DNA of 64,000 nt from a virus: IMG/VR virus record IMGVR_UViG_3300037325_000203, one strand, 5' to 3'. The notes under the pieces were generated by a model. The model was not told where the DNA came from. It saw only the letters and a list, made by a program, of their open reading frames with translations, and did no database searches. Positions 3,637 through 57,831 of this stretch are shown here, in pieces. Positions within the stretch are counted from its first letter, which is position 1. Each line of letters begins with the position of its first letter. The translations under genes and the position numbers were made by a program.

Positions 3637-4983
3637 CTAGTTTTTCTTATTCTTAATGAAGGCCCTTAGTATTGCTGCTCCGGCAAGCGGGTCGGGCTTG
3701 TTTTCCCTTCGAGTGATAGATGTAACGTCCTCCGATTCGACACCTAATTTCTCACTAGCCCTGATAATACTCTTTTGCTTTAGCTTCTCATAAATATCCT
3801 TAGATGTAGCAGTAATGGCGCCATCATCCCCTTCCTCTAAGTCACTAATCCTTAGGCTCCTGTTGTTAAATGCTAAATCGACCTTGGATCCTACACCCGA
3901 ACTAGATCGAGTTTTCATAAACTGGATCTGATAGCGACCGCCTTCCTTCATCGCGGCGCTAGTAAAAATGCCTATGACATTATCTGCTGTGTTAACTTTA
4001 GAGATACCACCAGCGATGTGACTAGGATCGAATTCTATTTGTTCGTACGAATTGCGATTTAGCTGGGATGCAGATACAGTCACTGTCTGCAATTCTACTG
4101 CTAAGTTACGTAGCTCTTCTGTTATATATTTGTCCTTAACAAACAAATTTTCTGCAGATATCTTTTTACTCATTGGCATCATTAAGTCTAAGTAGTCAAC
4201 TAAAATTGCATCGACTTTGCGTTTAGCATATATTTCATATTCCTTGATGTAAGCTCGTATATCGTTGGAAGTACACCCATTAGGCAGTTGCTTAACCCTT
4301 AACGACCCTCCACTTTTTTGCTGCGATGATCTGACCTTCATGTGTACATCGTCGATATTTCTCATGACTTCTCGAGTCTCATACCCAGTGTGCATCGCAT
4401 CTATACGCATAGCACACAATTTTTCACTTAGTTCCAAGGAAAGGTATACCACATTCAGACCAGACATGGCCCAATTTACTGCAAGGTTCTGTAAGAAAAG
4501 GGATTTTCCTGCACCAGAATTATGGGACGATATTCCGTTAGTATAGTACCTGTGATTTTCACTATCTACTACCAAATCAAATACAAGATCTGTTTCATTT
4601 GTATCCAGAATATCAGACACTATTCTAAATCCGTTATCGGATAATAATTTATCACCTATTTGTAAATTAATTATAGATACCCAGCACCCGTATATATTCT
4701 CAAACATATGCATAGGAGACGCTGTAACATATGTACCGTCGGTAAATTGGACGCAATAAATTTCATAACTTCCCTTGCTAATCAAATGCTTAACTGGTAC
4801 ATAGCCATCCGGCGAATCTACAAACCAATCATTTTTACATTTATTTAAATCAAAGATATTATATTCGATCGGTTGCATTTCAAGATATAATCTTTCAAAT
4901 GTGTCTATGTCCTGAGATTGATATTTAATTAATGTTTCTCTATCGTAAAACTGTGATAGGTATTCAATTTTTTCGTAATTCAT
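3637..4983 (-). CDS. DnaB/gp41-like replicative helicase, C-terminal part, preceded by a 155-aa split-intein C fragment
   Basis: Intein end ...VFDLVVDSENHRYYTNGISSHN|SGAGKS; then YLSLEL, ILVDYLDL and SASQLNR DnaB motifs. Confidence 0.92.
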   Translation of the reverse strand: MNYEKIEYLSQFYDRETLIKYQSQDIDTFERLYLEMQPIEYNIFDLNKCKNDWFVDSPDGYVPVKHLISKGSYEIYCVQFTDGTYVTASPMHMFENIYGCWVSIINLQIGDKLLSDNGFRIVSDILDTNETDLVFDLVVDSENHRYYTNGISSHNSGAGKSLFLQNLAVNWAMSGLNVVYLSLELSEKLCAMRIDAMHTGYETREVMRNIDDVHMKVRSSQQKSGGSLRVKQLPNGCTSNDIRAYIKEYEIYAKRKVDAILVDYLDLMMPMSKKISAENLFVKDKYITEELRNLAVELQTVTVSASQLNRNSYEQIEFDPSHIAGGISKVNTADNVIGIFTSAAMKEGGRYQIQFMKTRSSSGVGSKVDLAFNNRSLRISDLEEGDDGAITATSKDIYEKLKQKSIIRASEKLGVESEDVTSITRRENKPDPLAGAAILRAFIKNKKN

Positions 4984-6055
4984 TTATTTTAAAATTCCTA
5001 TTTTTTAAATCATTATTCCAGAATACATAATATTTTGTGCCTGTAAAAGTATTTAATATGTGATTTTTCTTTATATTATCGTTTCGATAACTATCCCCGT
5101 AAGTCCCGAGATGTGGCAAAGGCTTGTTATCTACTTCTATTATTTTATTAGATAATTCTTCTTTATAATCTGAGAAATTTATATGCCCGGGGCCGTGAAA
5201 CTCCATAATACACAGTAATTCTTTCTTCGCCGAATCTGCAAATACAGCTAAATCATATCTTCTAAATCCTGCAGTGGGTATCCATTGGAAATACTGTTCA
5301 GTTGGTGCACCGAACATACAATTTTCTCTATTGATATTATTTTGTTCTATAAATAGATTTACTGCCTGCATTTCCTGGCCGTTAATATTAAAGGATTTCT
5401 GAAGGGTCTTTAAGTAATGAGCCGACCTTTCGTCTTGTGTCTTGTTTTTCCAAGTCTGTTTCCGCTTATTGCAAGCATATCTGTATTTAATTGCACCTTC
5501 TATAGTTCCGTATTTCTCTATATAAAACGGTAACCCGCGTGCCTGATATGTTGTTACTAATACCTCAGCAGATTCTTTATCGTATCCCTTCTTTTCCCAG
5601 TATTCAACACACCTTACACTACACTTTCGATGATTTTTATTTCGGGAACTACCGGAGGCCATGATCTGATGATTTCTTACCTTCTCTATCGCCTCTGCTT
5701 CGGTAAATCCTTGATTTGTCCAATATATCTTTCTCGATGGAAAATAATCTTTGATTTTCGATAAATTATTATTCCATCTCTTTAAACCTAATTCGGCTCC
5801 ATACAAAATACAAAAATATTCGACACTCATTCTCTCATGTTTTAAAAGATCGAATTCTCGACTAATAACATCGGAATACCCTTGTTTTAAAAACCAGGCC
5901 AGGCGCATAAAATGATCTTGCGATTTTCTATAACCGCGCAAATCGAAATAGTCTAATAATCCACTTTCCTGTTCTGGTGTCAATAATATATCTGATAATA
6001 TTTTCTTAACTACTTTTATGTTTAAAAACTTCCTGATATACATTTTCCTGTTCAT
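4964..6055 (-). mobile_element. Free-standing homing endonuclease (Vsr/PD-(D/E)XK-like) between the two helicase halves
   Basis: KYG-type repeats and a C-terminal RRYDLAVF...IMEFHGPGH motif. Sits between IntN and IntC. ATAAATA at ~6091-6097 lies upstream of the probable start at 6055. Confidence 0.65.
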
Positions 6056-51277: not shown

Positions 51278-51353
51278 TGGTGCTGAATGTCGGATTCGAA
51301 CTGACCACATCCGCCTTACAAGAGCGGCGCTCTACCAAATGAGCTAATCCAGC
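51278..51353 (-). tRNA. tRNA-Thr(TGT)
   Basis: Canonical cloverleaf, CTTGTAA loop, CCA. Confidence 0.92.
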
Positions 51354-51372
51354 GTATACCTACTATGTATCT

Positions 51373-51401
51373 ATTATAATACTATTTATGCTATTAGTCA
51401 A
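51373..51401 (-). promoter_or_regulatory. Sigma70-type promoter for the tRNA-Thr unit
   Basis: TTGACT-N17-TATAAT. Confidence 0.75.
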
Positions 51402-51431
51402 TTATACCAGTAATTTCACCTATAATTAAAA

Positions 51432-51655
51432 ATATTAGAGGTGTGTTATTACACCAAAGATTCTAAGACATAATATACACATTGTATCAATAACCATGCC
51501 GGGCAGCAGGATACTTGGTTCGACTTTTATAGTAAAACATATGTATAACATCGACCCGAGACTTTTACCACTGTTCGGCGGCAGGCTTAATTAGTAGGAG
51601 TTCGCTTCTCACTCTTTAAAGGATGGCCACTTCTAAGCCCACCTCCCTCTAACAC
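51432..51655 (-). ncRNA. 23S rRNA L11-binding domain (H43/H44, GTPase-associated centre) mimic with a ~155-nt insertion
   Basis: 5' GUGUUAGAGG-GAGGUGGGCUUAGAAGUGGCCAUCCUUUAAAGAGU...GGUGUAAUAACACA-CCUCUAAUAU 3', closed by a 10-bp terminal helix. Confidence 0.78.
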
Positions 51656-51660
51656 TCAGC

Positions 51661-51687
51661 AGAATAGGAGCCTTACGCTCCTATTCT
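51661..51687. terminator. Strong hairpin between the Ro60-like gene and the rRNA-mimic RNA
   Basis: agaataggag-ccttacg-ctcctattct. The U tract is only on the + strand, so it probably does not stop minus-strand transcription. Confidence 0.55.
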
Positions 51688-51700
51688 TTTTTAGGACTTC

Positions 51701-53101
51701 TTAGAAATCATAGCGGGCGGTCATTACAGTTTTAAGCATAATGCTGATTGGTGTCATTTCTTCGCCACCCAATACCGACTTAACGATGCTTGGGCTAAAG
51801 CCTGACACCAAGGCTGCACCTGACTCGTTGTAAGTCACTGGACTGTTGCCGGCGCGGCCATTCAGGTTCCAGAACACAATCTGTGGCATCTCGTATCCAG
51901 CATTATTGAACTCTTGTTTTACCATTTCCATAGCGCTAACACTCACGCCCCGAGAATTGGTCGAAACGCATTGATTAAATTCCATGTCAGACAGGATAAG
52001 GAGTTTGCTCGGCATTTCGCTCTGCGGTACACCGTGCTTAACGCCGGCGTTAAGCACCAGTTTAAACACTGCCTGAATGTTTGTGCTCATTCCCCAATCG
52101 GTTCGGGCCATCTGCTCGTAGCGCTGTATTAGGTTACCCGACACCTTTTGCAAAGAAGGGGTACTACTAAAAGTAACAAATTGGTCCTTGAAAGCTCCAC
52201 TTAGTCGTTCGGACAGATATAGTCCCAGAGAGATAGATACGTCCATAGCAGTTACACTACCAGACACTTCGACGCCACTCATGGAGCCCGAGACATCTAC
52301 GATTGGCAGAATATTTTCTCTTGACCCTTCGAGGTAGTTCGGCAGTGCCGCCCATTGTGCATTCGCCACAGTTGGGTCACCGTTGTTCAATGAACGAATA
52401 ACATCGTATGGATATGCAACAGATGCATTGATCTTTGCCTCACCCGTAGCCAACTTAGCTTTGTAGTCGCCGTATCCCGCAGGATCATGCTTCAAGAAAG
52501 CTTTTTGGTAGCGCCCGGCGGCGACTGAGGGAACATGCGGATACACAATGCCAGTCCAGTCTTGCGCACACATTTTCTGCTCAACCGTGTTAGACAGACC
52601 GACCAGCAACTTACGGTACTGTTTCGGGGTCAATTTCAAGTAAGAGCGGATCTTGTTTGCTTCTGCACCCTGTCGAGGCATCCATTTTGCACACAATCCA
52701 TCTCGGGTCTCGTTCAGTGCAAACGCAATCATGCGGAGAGCTTCGCGTTCGATGGGCGAACCGAATGCAACTAGCACATCATCCCACCGACCAAGTTCGG
52801 GCGCCTTTACCAGAACTCGGGAAGCGCTTGCCGGTTCGTTCTTCAGGATATAACTAAACAATTTCCGGAATGTATCGCGCTCACCTGCGCCGCCTCTTGC
52901 ATCTCGGGCCCATTGCAATACACGAATTGCCACTTCCGAGTCTTCGACAAATGCCCCTACAAAAGTAGAGGTGATATCTTTACCGCGGCTCGCGCCGGCG
53001 AGAAAGAACAAGTCAACGTTCTTGTTCAACGAAGATGCGTTAGTAACTGCGCCGTTGGCAGTTGTAGCAGATGAATTTACGGCTTCAAATAGTGTTGTCA
53101 T
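51701..53101 (-). CDS. Ro60/TROVE-like helical protein with a C-terminal vWA (MIDAS) domain (DUF2828-like)
   Basis: WARDARGGAGER, GRWDD, AKWMPR, YRKLL; vWA motifs VDVSGSM, ILSDMEF and VFWNL. Confidence 0.85.
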   Translation of the reverse strand: MTTLFEAVNSSATTANGAVTNASSLNKNVDLFFLAGASRGKDITSTFVGAFVEDSEVAIRVLQWARDARGGAGERDTFRKLFSYILKNEPASASRVLVKAPELGRWDDVLVAFGSPIEREALRMIAFALNETRDGLCAKWMPRQGAEANKIRSYLKLTPKQYRKLLVGLSNTVEQKMCAQDWTGIVYPHVPSVAAGRYQKAFLKHDPAGYGDYKAKLATGEAKINASVAYPYDVIRSLNNGDPTVANAQWAALPNYLEGSRENILPIVDVSGSMSGVEVSGSVTAMDVSISLGLYLSERLSGAFKDQFVTFSSTPSLQKVSGNLIQRYEQMARTDWGMSTNIQAVFKLVLNAGVKHGVPQSEMPSKLLILSDMEFNQCVSTNSRGVSVSAMEMVKQEFNNAGYEMPQIVFWNLNGRAGNSPVTYNESGAALVSGFSPSIVKSVLGGEEMTPISIMLKTVMTARYDF

Positions 53102-54049: not shown

Positions 54050-54275
54050 AAAAACAGAGTGGCGTAAGGAACACATAGTCTAAAAAGAATACATGTTGTA
54101 CGGCCTTACCCGTAGATCGAACCTTTTACATCGTTCTAGGATGTTTATACCACTGTAAGTCTCCTTACGCAATAGGACCAGTTTCAACGAGTTTCCTCTC
54201 CACTGGATATATATGGTACGTACAGTTACCTTTCGGTAAGTTTTTGTTTGCTGTATCCACTCTTTGTGTATAACA
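54050..54275 (-). ncRNA. Y-RNA-like ncRNA A (~215-225 nt)
   Basis: Promoter TTGACT-N18-TATAAT (54311-54282); terminal stem AGAGUGG/CCACUCU, AUACAGCAA, UUACG, internal GAAA-loop hairpin, 3' GUUUUU. Confidence 0.7.
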
Positions 54276-56327: not shown

Positions 56328-57377
56328 TTAGTCTTTTTCTTTAAGCAAATATATGTTAGAAATCGCTTTAAAGGAGAACTTGCCGTCGACTCTCTTAAAC
56401 ACTAACCCTTCCCTGACAGGATGGGTAATGCTCGTACCTTCCGCAAATTTTAGTATGTCTGCCACAGTTTGTATACCGAGTGTATCCCTTAAATTTGCAG
56501 TGTGTGCAATAACAGGAACGTGTTCTGCCATTTTTCTATCTAACCCGAATACGTGCATGTTGTCAACAAATCCTCGACGGCTGCTCGGGGACAAATACGA
56601 TCCTTGGTCGATATCGTAGATGTCAAAGATATACAGTTTAGCAGCGGATAATCCCTCTCGATTCTGTTGTATACCCGGGCCCATAAGTTCCCCTTGTACC
56701 GCGTAATTCTGCCGTAAAGACGCTAATACTGACTGTAGTCCGGAGTCGACGAACATACGAACATAGGAGTTACCTCCATTCGTATCGTCAACACTTAATT
56801 CCCAATTCCTGCTACACACACCTGTGTCGCCATTGTTGTAATACGCAGTGAACGAAGTCCCGTCTAGCTTTAGAGAAACTTCGAACTTCGAATCAAATTC
56901 AGCGAATATATCAGCGCCAATATTCTGGCAACGCTCTTGCTCAGTTTTACTAATAAAGGACGGAAAATTTCCTCGAACCACACCGGCAAGTTCTGCGGGT
57001 ATTTGAGCTTCCCACTTCTTAATTCCTAAATTAGCTGTAACGTCTGTGTCAACAGAAAGTGTACCATTAGTACTGCCGAGTACAGACAAAGAACATACGA
57101 ATCCTTGACTAAGCTGTCCGCGTAATTTAATAGTTTTCAGTCTATGGCCCTTATTCCCCTCAAATATGCGCGAGCGTTTTTCAACAAGATGTTGCCAAGC
57201 CGGGTTATCATCAGGTAAAAAACTATCTACCTCGCAATAAATGCAAAGTTCTCCTACATAGAATTCTCCCTTCTTTACAACGGCTTGCCACCCGTCGATC
57301 TTAGCCAACACAATGAGGTCGGCACCTTCGATCGGCAATAGTTCGTCAATTTTTCTAATTGTTGCTAAGTTTCTCAT
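56328..57377 (-). CDS. RNA ligase, DRB0094/Rnl2-like family
   Basis: N-terminal OB-like LATIRKI...PIEGAD...GWQAVVKKGEF; KLDGTS, QGELMGPGIQ, FDIYD, REGLVFK and FKAISN motifs. Confidence 0.9.
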   Translation of the reverse strand: MRNLATIRKIDELLPIEGADLIVLAKIDGWQAVVKKGEFYVGELCIYCEVDSFLPDDNPAWQHLVEKRSRIFEGNKGHRLKTIKLRGQLSQGFVCSLSVLGSTNGTLSVDTDVTANLGIKKWEAQIPAELAGVVRGNFPSFISKTEQERCQNIGADIFAEFDSKFEVSLKLDGTSFTAYYNNGDTGVCSRNWELSVDDTNGGNSYVRMFVDSGLQSVLASLRQNYAVQGELMGPGIQQNREGLSAAKLYIFDIYDIDQGSYLSPSSRRGFVDNMHVFGLDRKMAEHVPVIAHTANLRDTLGIQTVADILKFAEGTSITHPVREGLVFKRVDGKFSFKAISNIYLLKEKD

Positions 57378-57831
57378 TTGATTTCTCACTTATTGTTTTA
57401 AGAATAGCTTCGTGATGAGGCCAATCCGGGCTGTGTGTTGTAAGTGACCTTACCTGCTCGCCAAAGACTAGAGAAAACATAATCGCCGATTCTTTTGTCT
57501 GAAAACTAAATCGATACCAACAGTTCGTAACCTTGTACGACGCAACATTGTACGAATCATTATGAGTCCTTTTATTGTCTGAGTACATTGTATAACTCAA
57601 ATCAACGTCGTCCATTATGACTGTTTCTATTAGTGCAGATTCTATCCACTGGCGTATCTTTACCTTAGGGACTGGACTATTTCCGTATTTACTATTATAC
57701 ATATACACATGATATGGATAATCCGGACTAGGCCATATATAAGAATATCTTTGACTAGATGTACAATATGCGTCTGTAAAATACCACTCCGCCATATTCT
57801 GTATTTCGTGTTTAGCAACCAATGTTCCCAT
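57355..57831 (-). CDS. Hypothetical protein
   Basis: 158-aa ORF. Confidence 0.6.
   Translation of the reverse strand: MGTLVAKHEIQNMAEWYFTDAYCTSSQRYSYIWPSPDYPYHVYMYNSKYGNSPVPKVKIRQWIESALIETVIMDDVDLSYTMYSDNKRTHNDSYNVASYKVTNCWYRFSFQTKESAIMFSLVFGEQVRSLTTHSPDWPHHEAILKTISEKSNEKLSNN

Follow-up and report, generated by a model that had tools for sequence, protein, structure and literature searches.

Does the minus strand at 51430-51657 of the window (the whole 64,000-nucleotide stretch of viral DNA that we analyzed) carry a stray piece of host 23S rRNA or an RNA gene of the phage's own, and, if the latter, what might that RNA do? The region is predicted to encode a non-coding RNA of about 228 bases in an uncultured large phage. 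The two ends of this RNA together correspond to nucleotides (nts) 1055 to 1104 of 23S rRNA (E. coli numbering, used throughout) and are separated by an insertion between U1090 and G1091. E. coli 23S nts 1051 to 1108, which comprise the top of helix 42 (H42), H43, and H44, form the GTPase-associated center (GAC), the minimal uL11- and thiostrepton-binding domain, which also meets the translational GTPases.

Architecture of the element in the window

Inside a closing helix come, in order, G1056, H43, the junction, a 156-nt insert (51610-51455, linker included), and the H44 hairpin. The features of the element and its surroundings are as follows.

51701-53101, minus strand: gene for a DUF2828/DUF7788 protein (Pfam; PHROG 850, "RNA-binding protein"), called the Ro60-like gene below; context of the element, not part of it
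51661-51687, minus strand: hairpin of 11 bp in the gap that precedes the element, with a U-run on the plus strand only
51646-51657, minus strand: 5' arm of the helix that closes the element in place of H42; G1055 is 51646, and the partner is 51430-51441
51620-51644, minus strand: mimic of H43 (23S 1057-1081), loop UUAGAAGUG, aligned by the Rfam large-subunit (LSU) rRNA model; A1067 is 51634 and U1072 is 51629
51611-51619, minus strand: junction UUAAAGAGU (23S 1082-1090), with the U1082-A1086 pair, A1085, G1087, and A1088
51459-51610, minus strand: variable inserted domain, between U1090 and G1091
51455-51458, minus strand: family-specific linker UUUG before H44
51441-51454, minus strand: mimic of H44, GU-GUAAUA-AC-ACAC (23S 1091-1104); A1095 is 51450
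51430-51440, minus strand: 3' strand of the closing helix, continuing into a U-run (51427-51431); the match to covariance model R1 (described below) ends at 51429
51373-51401, minus strand: TTGACT-17-TATAAT, a strong promoter-like site that follows the element and lies before a tRNA-Thr gene

The closing helix is formed by GAGUGUUAGAGG (51657-51646) and CCUCUAAUAUUU (51441-51430). It has 12 bp, three of them G-U, where the first-pass annotation had counted 10; the coordinates given there, 51432-51655, were essentially right, and re-reading the strand confirmed its description of the minus-strand sequence. Both halves of the element are unique in the window. A 29-nt pattern for the 5' half (≤3 mismatches) matched once, with 0.00 matches expected from 100 shuffles, and an 18-nt pattern for the 3' half matched once, with 0.01 expected from shuffles; chance therefore does not explain the element. 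A search of the window with model R1 gave no second copy.

In the window copy U1072 accompanies a U1092-A1099 pair, the triple class U:(U-A), obeying the base-triple rule of the family (see below). The window has G1073, where 97% of members among the 3'-anchored matches listed have A, and the ends of its insert close weakly, with only two contiguous pairs. The minimum free energy of the RNA is -64.5 kcal/mol unconstrained and -50.0 kcal/mol when constrained to the GAC fold, so a different fold is favored by nearest-neighbor models, which omit tertiary, ion, and protein stabilization. The unconstrained fold departs from the GAC because UAAGCC in the insert (51578-51590) is complementary to GGCUUA of H43 (51630-51641). 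CUUAGAA at 51467-51461, also in the insert, repeats the H43 loop. The complement and the repeat could be due to chance or to an alternative conformer, and they were not seen as a family feature.

Alignment to an LSU rRNA model had been proposed in the first-pass annotation, and the 5' half does align: positions 51594-51646 match model positions 1096-1145 of the Rfam bacterial LSU model (RF02541) with E = 0.0025. The score of 18.1 bits is below the gathering score of 50, the match covers 50 of the 2,925 model positions, and no flanking rRNA was found in the window beyond those 50. Rfam 15, searched at the gathering score and at E values up to 10, gave only this weak LSU match and chance-level matches (L20_leader, sraA, preQ1-II, and DUF805b). 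Given the weak score, the small part of the model matched, and the lack of any other Rfam family, we regard the element as an rRNA look-alike and not an rRNA gene.

Some other identities were considered and rejected. An intron or intervening sequence does not fit, as no intron model matched, inserts are as short as 41 nt, and a covarying non-rRNA helix closes the flanks. Neither ARAGORN nor the Rfam tRNA model placed a tRNA-like module inside the window insert. A ribosomal-protein leader acting in cis was discarded because no ribosomal-protein gene lies downstream and the Rfam leader models matched only at chance level.

A phage RNA family with a selected fold

The first-pass annotation had suggested searching phage sequences outside rRNA operons for variable inserts, and that search defined a family. 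An exact pattern for H43 plus the junction occurred in 85 stretches of IMG/VR viral contigs, of which 84 have the split design; the one exception, L070, is genuine 23S rRNA and lacks the UUU(G/A) linker. The 84 diverge directly after AAAGAGU, and in almost all of them the 3' half follows 41 to 365 nt on and is itself followed by the complement of the 5' flank. The consensus of the 3' half is (C/U)UUU(G/A)-G(C/U)-GUANNA-(G/A)C-ACA(C/U). An independent scan of viral contigs with the 3' half alone gave more than 119 loci, and the 5' half was present in 85 of the 105 distinct 3'-anchored loci among the matches listed.

Among 185,579 prokaryotic genomes there were 57 matches, mostly on contigs of metagenome-assembled genomes (MAGs) and many with tRNA arrays; 31 are complete elements. 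The 26 that lack the 5' half fit chance, since by a rough estimate tens of matches to a 17-base pattern are expected in 596 Gb. One MAG contig (L215) carries two copies of the element, at 3991-4349 and 5199-5391, one of them without the exact 3' anchor pattern. Cultured phages also have the element: Pseudomonas phages pf16, UNO-G1W1, Milchi, and Astolliot, as well as Cronobacter phage GAP32, Aeromonas phage 4_4572, Xanthomonas phages XacN1 and XaC1, and Paenibacillus phage Pd_22F. No RNA feature is annotated over the element in any of these cultured-phage records.

Covariance model R1, built from 44 members, retrieved 33 further full-length members at 54 to 127 bits. The window copy, which belonged to the training set, scores 95.6 bits, and 51430-51657 has all the elements of the family: closing helix, H43, junction, insert, UUUG, H44, and A1101. 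A megablast search with 24 kb of the window found no match among 50,697 phage records, and the literature that we searched, in which coverage of subscription journals was limited, held no description of such an RNA. The element belongs to a family of phage non-coding RNAs that is large and, as far as these searches show, undescribed.

We measured selection on the fold in alignment A1, which holds 44 nonredundant members including the window copy, at 21 named pairs. Standard pairs filled 90.2% of the cells, versus 67.1% in shuffles and 31 to 50% when the partners were slid. At 17 of the 21 pairs both sides had changed, and none of 500 shuffles reached the observed covariation. The closing helix had both-side changes at all 11 aligned pairs in the 44 members, and the C1102-G1087 pair was present in all 44 sequences.

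For individual positions we used the set of matches that is unbiased for the half in question, the 3'-anchored set for the 5' half and the 5'-anchored set for the 3' half. Among the 3'-anchored matches listed, the pair 1057-1081 is A-U in 57 and C-G in 7; the pair 1058-1080 is U-A in 28, A-U in 17, G-C in 16, and C-G in 2; and the junction pair 1082-1086 is U-A in 34, C-G in 19, and A-U in 11. In the 5'-anchored set the combination 1072:(1092-1099) is C:(C-G) in 38, U:(U-A) in 9, mixed in 1, and never U:(C-G) (Fisher's P = 6e-9, a statistic that ignores the relatedness of the sequences). Position 1072 thus follows the pair 1092-1099, as in the base triple first inferred from rRNA covariation, and the native tertiary fold therefore appears to be conserved. 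C1072 in 68 of 68 of the 3'-anchored members listed agrees with the triple rule but is not independent evidence of invariance, because the 3' pattern forces C-G at 1092-1099.

Conservation was uneven along the 5' half. In the 3'-anchored matches listed, G1055, G1059, U1060, G1063, U1066, G1071, A1077, and A1085 are invariant, and A1084, G1087, A1088 (97%), G1089, and U1090 are 96 to 99% conserved. More variable in the same matches are A1067 (81% A, with G, C, or U in the other 19%), G1068 (74%), and A1070 (81%). In the 3' half A1095 is kept in nearly all members, and (C/U)UUU(G/A) precedes G1091 in nearly all 5'-anchored members. We take G1059, U1060, G1071, A1077, A1085, and A1088 to be positions of the fold and of the uL11 site, as in L11-RNA crystal structures, and A1067 to be the main contact for EF-G and thiostrepton. 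Because A1067 is variable, the pattern of conservation fits the fold and the uL11 site better than the factor-binding face.

The secondary structure and two tertiary contacts (1082-1086 and the 1072 triple) are thus under selection: it is the covariation of the stems and of these contacts that argues for selection on the native fold. The first-pass annotation had likewise read the element as a selected fold and not as decaying rRNA, and the split design in 84 of 85 stretches, together with this covariation, bears it out.

These data also dispose of the idea that the element has no function and is either a piece of host 23S rRNA, captured or chimeric, or an artifact of assembly. What speaks for it is a run of 38 consecutive bases near the bacterial LSU consensus. 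Against this, the rRNA ends with the 50 model positions, the number of independent contigs with the split design is well over 150 and finished phage genomes have it too, covariation is extensive, and the members share traits that rRNA does not have, namely A1101, the UUU(G/A) linker, and a fixed insertion point. Because A1101 and the linker recur in phages of unrelated hosts, the element is not a recent copy of host rRNA. GAGU at 1087-1090 is present even in phages of gammaproteobacteria (GAP32 and pf16, compared with the 23S rRNA of L070), although the rRNA of these bacteria has GAAA there. The family data have already refuted the captured-rRNA reading.

The insert is the variable part of the RNA. 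In 115 members its length ranged from 41 to 365 nt (median, 138) and its sequences differed, but its ends pair, with a mean of 3.98 contiguous pairs versus 2.57 (standard deviation, 0.10) for shuffled partners. A Watson-Crick pair between U1090 and A1101 is possible; with such a pair the insert would branch off between two stacked pairs of H44. The inserts fall into recurring modules. A small conserved hairpin, G(G/U)CACC-CCG-NNNN-CGG-UAAGG(C/A), lies 11 to 13 nt before the 3' end of the insert in about 30 of the 115 members; its outer three pairs covary, and its loop is GNRA or UAAC (e.g., L003:11551-11732 and L043:1423-1623). The window has only a loose look-alike of this hairpin, at about 51576-51555. 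A second module, GCGAAAUG...hairpin...GAUGUG...GAAAAAUGG, occurs in five loci (L032, L141, L094, L175, and L148) and suggests that inserts may be drawn from a few exchangeable types. The family therewith offers more than 100 natural variants of the classic 58-nt GAC model fold that tolerate an insertion at one fixed site.

Genomic setting and the Ro60-like neighbor

The family resides in tRNA arrays of phages. A tRNA gene lies within 1.5 kb of the element in 68 of the 85 loci of the first scan, and in every case the two share a strand. The H43 pattern begins 15 to 28 nt past the 3' end of a tRNA in 23 of these 85 loci. The closing helix there starts almost at the tRNA 3' end, and tRNA-processing enzymes would therefore be expected to excise the RNA. 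The pf16 copy fills the gap between tRNA-Asn and tRNA-Pro, and the GAP32 copy fills a gap between two protein genes. The setting in the window is less typical: a protein gene lies upstream, and the tRNA-Thr gene (51278-51353) is 76 nt downstream on the same strand with a strong promoter-like site of its own. That site suggests that the element and tRNA-Thr are separate transcription units.

Upstream, the hairpin at 51661-51687 has an A-run on one side and a U-run on the other; it was predicted as a terminator on the plus strand but not on the minus strand, although no plus-strand open reading frame ends at it. On the minus strand, no terminator was found in the gap that separates the Ro60-like gene from the element, and the one promoter-like site ahead of the element is weak. 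Because the hairpin is a poor minus-strand terminator and this promoter is weak, transcription could plausibly run on from the gene into the element. The window RNA is thus probably made by such read-through, with its 3' end at the closing helix plus U5. The wider surroundings are a neighborhood of RNA repair and translation, with eight tRNA genes at 44 to 63 kb of the window and an RNA ligase gene (PHROG 968; 56328-57389) 3 kb from the Ro60-like gene.

The element starts about 44 nt after the stop codon of the gene at 51701-53101 (gap, 51658-51700). The protein had no sequence match to TROVE in Pfam or to solved structures in a sequence search of the Protein Data Bank (PDB). Its AlphaFold model (6-sequence alignment; mean pLDDT, 72) had Ro60/TROVE structures as all 12 of its top PDB matches, the best being Ro60 of Thermus phage phiLo (E = 8e-8, TM of about 0.5, and about 500 aligned columns). 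The name "Ro60-like," introduced in the first-pass annotation, is therefore valid at the level of the fold.

The link that this annotation drew between the RNA and the Ro60-like gene stands as local adjacency in the window but not as a conserved association: a DUF2828/DUF7788-type gene is near the element in 2 of the 85 loci. DUF7788 was found in 13 of 50 whole RNA-bearing contigs and in 10 of the 28 of those that are at least 90% complete, TROVE was found in 4 of the 50 and in 2 of the 28, and neither was found in 16 of the 28 near-complete genomes. Searches with R1 placed no element next to the closest homologues of the Ro60-like gene, those of Stenotrophomonas phage DLP6, Citrobacter phage Ci1, and Cronobacter phage S13, and none within about 1.5 kb of the homologous gene in four RNA-bearing contigs. 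On these counts, and given the homologous loci without the element, we rejected an obligate partnership with the Ro60-like gene.

Several other observations concern this gene and its homologues. Between 53101 and 54311 on the minus strand, upstream of the Ro60-like gene, are three RNAs or leaders with ACAGCAA at 54254, 54000, and 53137. Each has a stem (AGAGUGG, AGGUGAU, and AGAAUU, respectively), then ACAGCAA, and the complementary arm at its end, and two of the three are preceded by good -10 boxes. Look-alikes with ACAGCAA are also near the homologous gene in L038 and L004. These RNAs are candidate Y-RNA-like partners of the Ro60-like protein; the stem-plus-ACAGCAA signature is missing from the GAC-like element. 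A few hundred bases past the DUF2828 gene, S13 (L252:5896-6138) and Ci1 (L251:6012-6125) have over-long "tRNA" features of 113 to 121 nt (tRNA-OTHER or pseudo), which may be tRNA-like Y RNAs rather than tRNAs. In Stenotrophomonas phage DLP6 an annotated gene for a ppGpp pyrophosphohydrolase (L250:447-1055) is 3 kb upstream of the closest Ro60-like homologue, in the same tRNA-bearing region.

Possible function and comparison with known systems

To our knowledge, uL11 is the only protein known to recognize the GAC fold with high affinity. None of the 50 RNA-bearing contigs encodes an L11 homologue (the same search was positive in 14 of 14 control genomes), which eliminates a phage-encoded L11 as the partner; any uL11 partner must thus be the host's. 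With a conserved uL11-binding domain and no phage L11, the simplest reading is that host uL11 is bound off the ribosome. We hold with modest confidence that the RNA takes up the native GAC fold and binds host uL11 in this way, as a decoy or as a scaffold. The closing helix, of free sequence, substitutes for H42, while H43, the junction, and H44 keep all the nucleotides of the GAC tertiary fold; a short helix and the UUU(G/A) linker connect the variable domain to the core between U1090 and G1091. Host uL11 would be bound through its C-terminal domain. Either exchangeable or newly made uL11 would then be withdrawn (a decoy), or uL11 would help form a stable particle on which the insert is displayed (a scaffold). 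A point against the decoy is that uL11 in assembled ribosomes may not be titratable, and the large variable insert suggests that the conserved core may be only a platform.

Other partners named in the first-pass annotation fared less well. A decoy for translational GTPases or thiopeptides is a poor fit, because the contact of both factors and thiostrepton, A1067, varies in 19% of the members listed. Binding of uL10 (as L10-L12) is doubtful, since a helix of free sequence stands where H42 would be.

It is conceivable that the GAC fold, whether uL11 is bound or not, provides a nuclease-resistant, self-folding platform, matured by tRNA-processing enzymes, and that the insert is the working part. 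The range of insert lengths, the recurring modules with their hairpin motif, the pairing of the insert ends, and the spacing from tRNA ends in 23 of 85 loci all agree with this. We nevertheless think it unlikely, as a mere stabilizer does not need every tertiary contact of one rRNA domain, some inserts have just 41 to 60 nt, and no element is common to all inserts. Lower still do we rate the chance that the RNA is a decoy whose target attacks or senses the ribosomal GAC; that target might be a host defense nuclease, a modifying enzyme, or a thiopeptide. The setting in tRNA arrays would parallel that of phage tRNAs that counter tRNA-targeting defenses, and the exposed loops are mostly kept, with nearly all members having A1095 and 81% of those listed having A1067. 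However, A1067 is the main contact for thiopeptides and factors and is altered in the remaining 19%, and we know of no defense that targets H43/H44.

The element might instead be a Y-RNA-like partner of the Ro60-like protein, its GAC module tethering uL11 or ribosomal material. Its place just past a gene whose protein model matches Ro60, the stem formed by its ends in the fashion of a Y RNA, and the presence of DUF7788 in 10 of the 28 near-complete genomes would suit such a role. It is very improbable all the same, with 16 of those 28 genomes lacking both DUF7788 and TROVE, no element beside the homologues in DLP6, Ci1, and S13 or within about 1.5 kb in the four contigs, and none of the stem-plus-ACAGCAA signature of the three upstream RNAs.

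Binding of host uL11 thus remains our preferred reading, and its wider consequence is put forward more tentatively: phages of many bacterial phyla may possess a dedicated RNA gene that captures host uL11 and reprograms translation or stress signaling during infection. If so, uL11-dependent activation of RelA might, for example, be blunted, or the GAC might be shielded from an unknown defense, and the variable insert would add lineage-specific functions. Binding of uL11 would give phages a new route to the stalk-base region of the host ribosome or to uL11-dependent signaling, and the RNA would be the first trans-acting viral mimic of an rRNA domain. Viruses and Y RNAs are well known to mimic tRNA, and rRNA-like leaders of host mRNAs are well known too; in the literature searched we found no report of a virus encoding a stand-alone copy of a tertiary domain of rRNA. 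New here are the quantified non-linkage to Ro60-like genes, the fold of the neighbor, the variability of A1067, and the lack of phage L11 genes. This large family spans phages whose hosts are unrelated, and not even RefSeq phage genomes annotate it; its cultured members with tractable hosts (pf16 with Pseudomonas putida and GAP32 with Cronobacter) make the function directly testable.

The closest known structure is the GAC of bacterial 23S rRNA itself. Common to both are the stems and loops of H43 and H44, the 1082-1086 pair, and the sites of the contact U1060-A1088 and of the triples at G1071 and 1072, and the covariation rules of rRNA phylogeny also hold in the phage RNA. In contrast to the GAC, the phage RNA is free-standing, has a short helix of free sequence in place of H42, carries a domain of 41 to 365 nt between 1090 and 1091, and has A1101, the added UUU(G/A) linker, and a less conserved A1067. 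The leaders of ribosomal-protein operons (e.g., the L10, L1, and L20 leaders) also mimic rRNA, and they are likewise RNAs off the ribosome that imitate the binding site of a ribosomal protein. However, they act in cis in the host mRNAs that they regulate, and their mimicry of the site is partial, whereas the phage RNA is a separate gene product that copies a whole tertiary domain, with no ribosomal-protein gene nearby and no L11 gene in the 50 contigs.

Among the Y RNAs that partner Ro60 are bacterial YrlA, which has a tRNA-like module, and Yrl1 and Yrl2 of Thermus phage phiLo (PMC12135203, PMC4201824). They too combine a terminal stem with an internal module that imitates an RNA of translation, and the window element, like them, adjoins a Ro60-like gene. 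Its module, however, mimics rRNA and not tRNA, no Ro60-site motif is shared, and most split-GAC members are in genomes without any Ro60-like gene. Sequestration by RNA is exemplified by 6S RNA, which sequesters RNA polymerase, and by CsrB and RsmZ, which sequester CsrA. Although the phage RNA has another target, is phage encoded, and is only proposed to sequester it, the proposed logic is the same: an abundant RNA that mimics the natural nucleic acid ligand of a protein.
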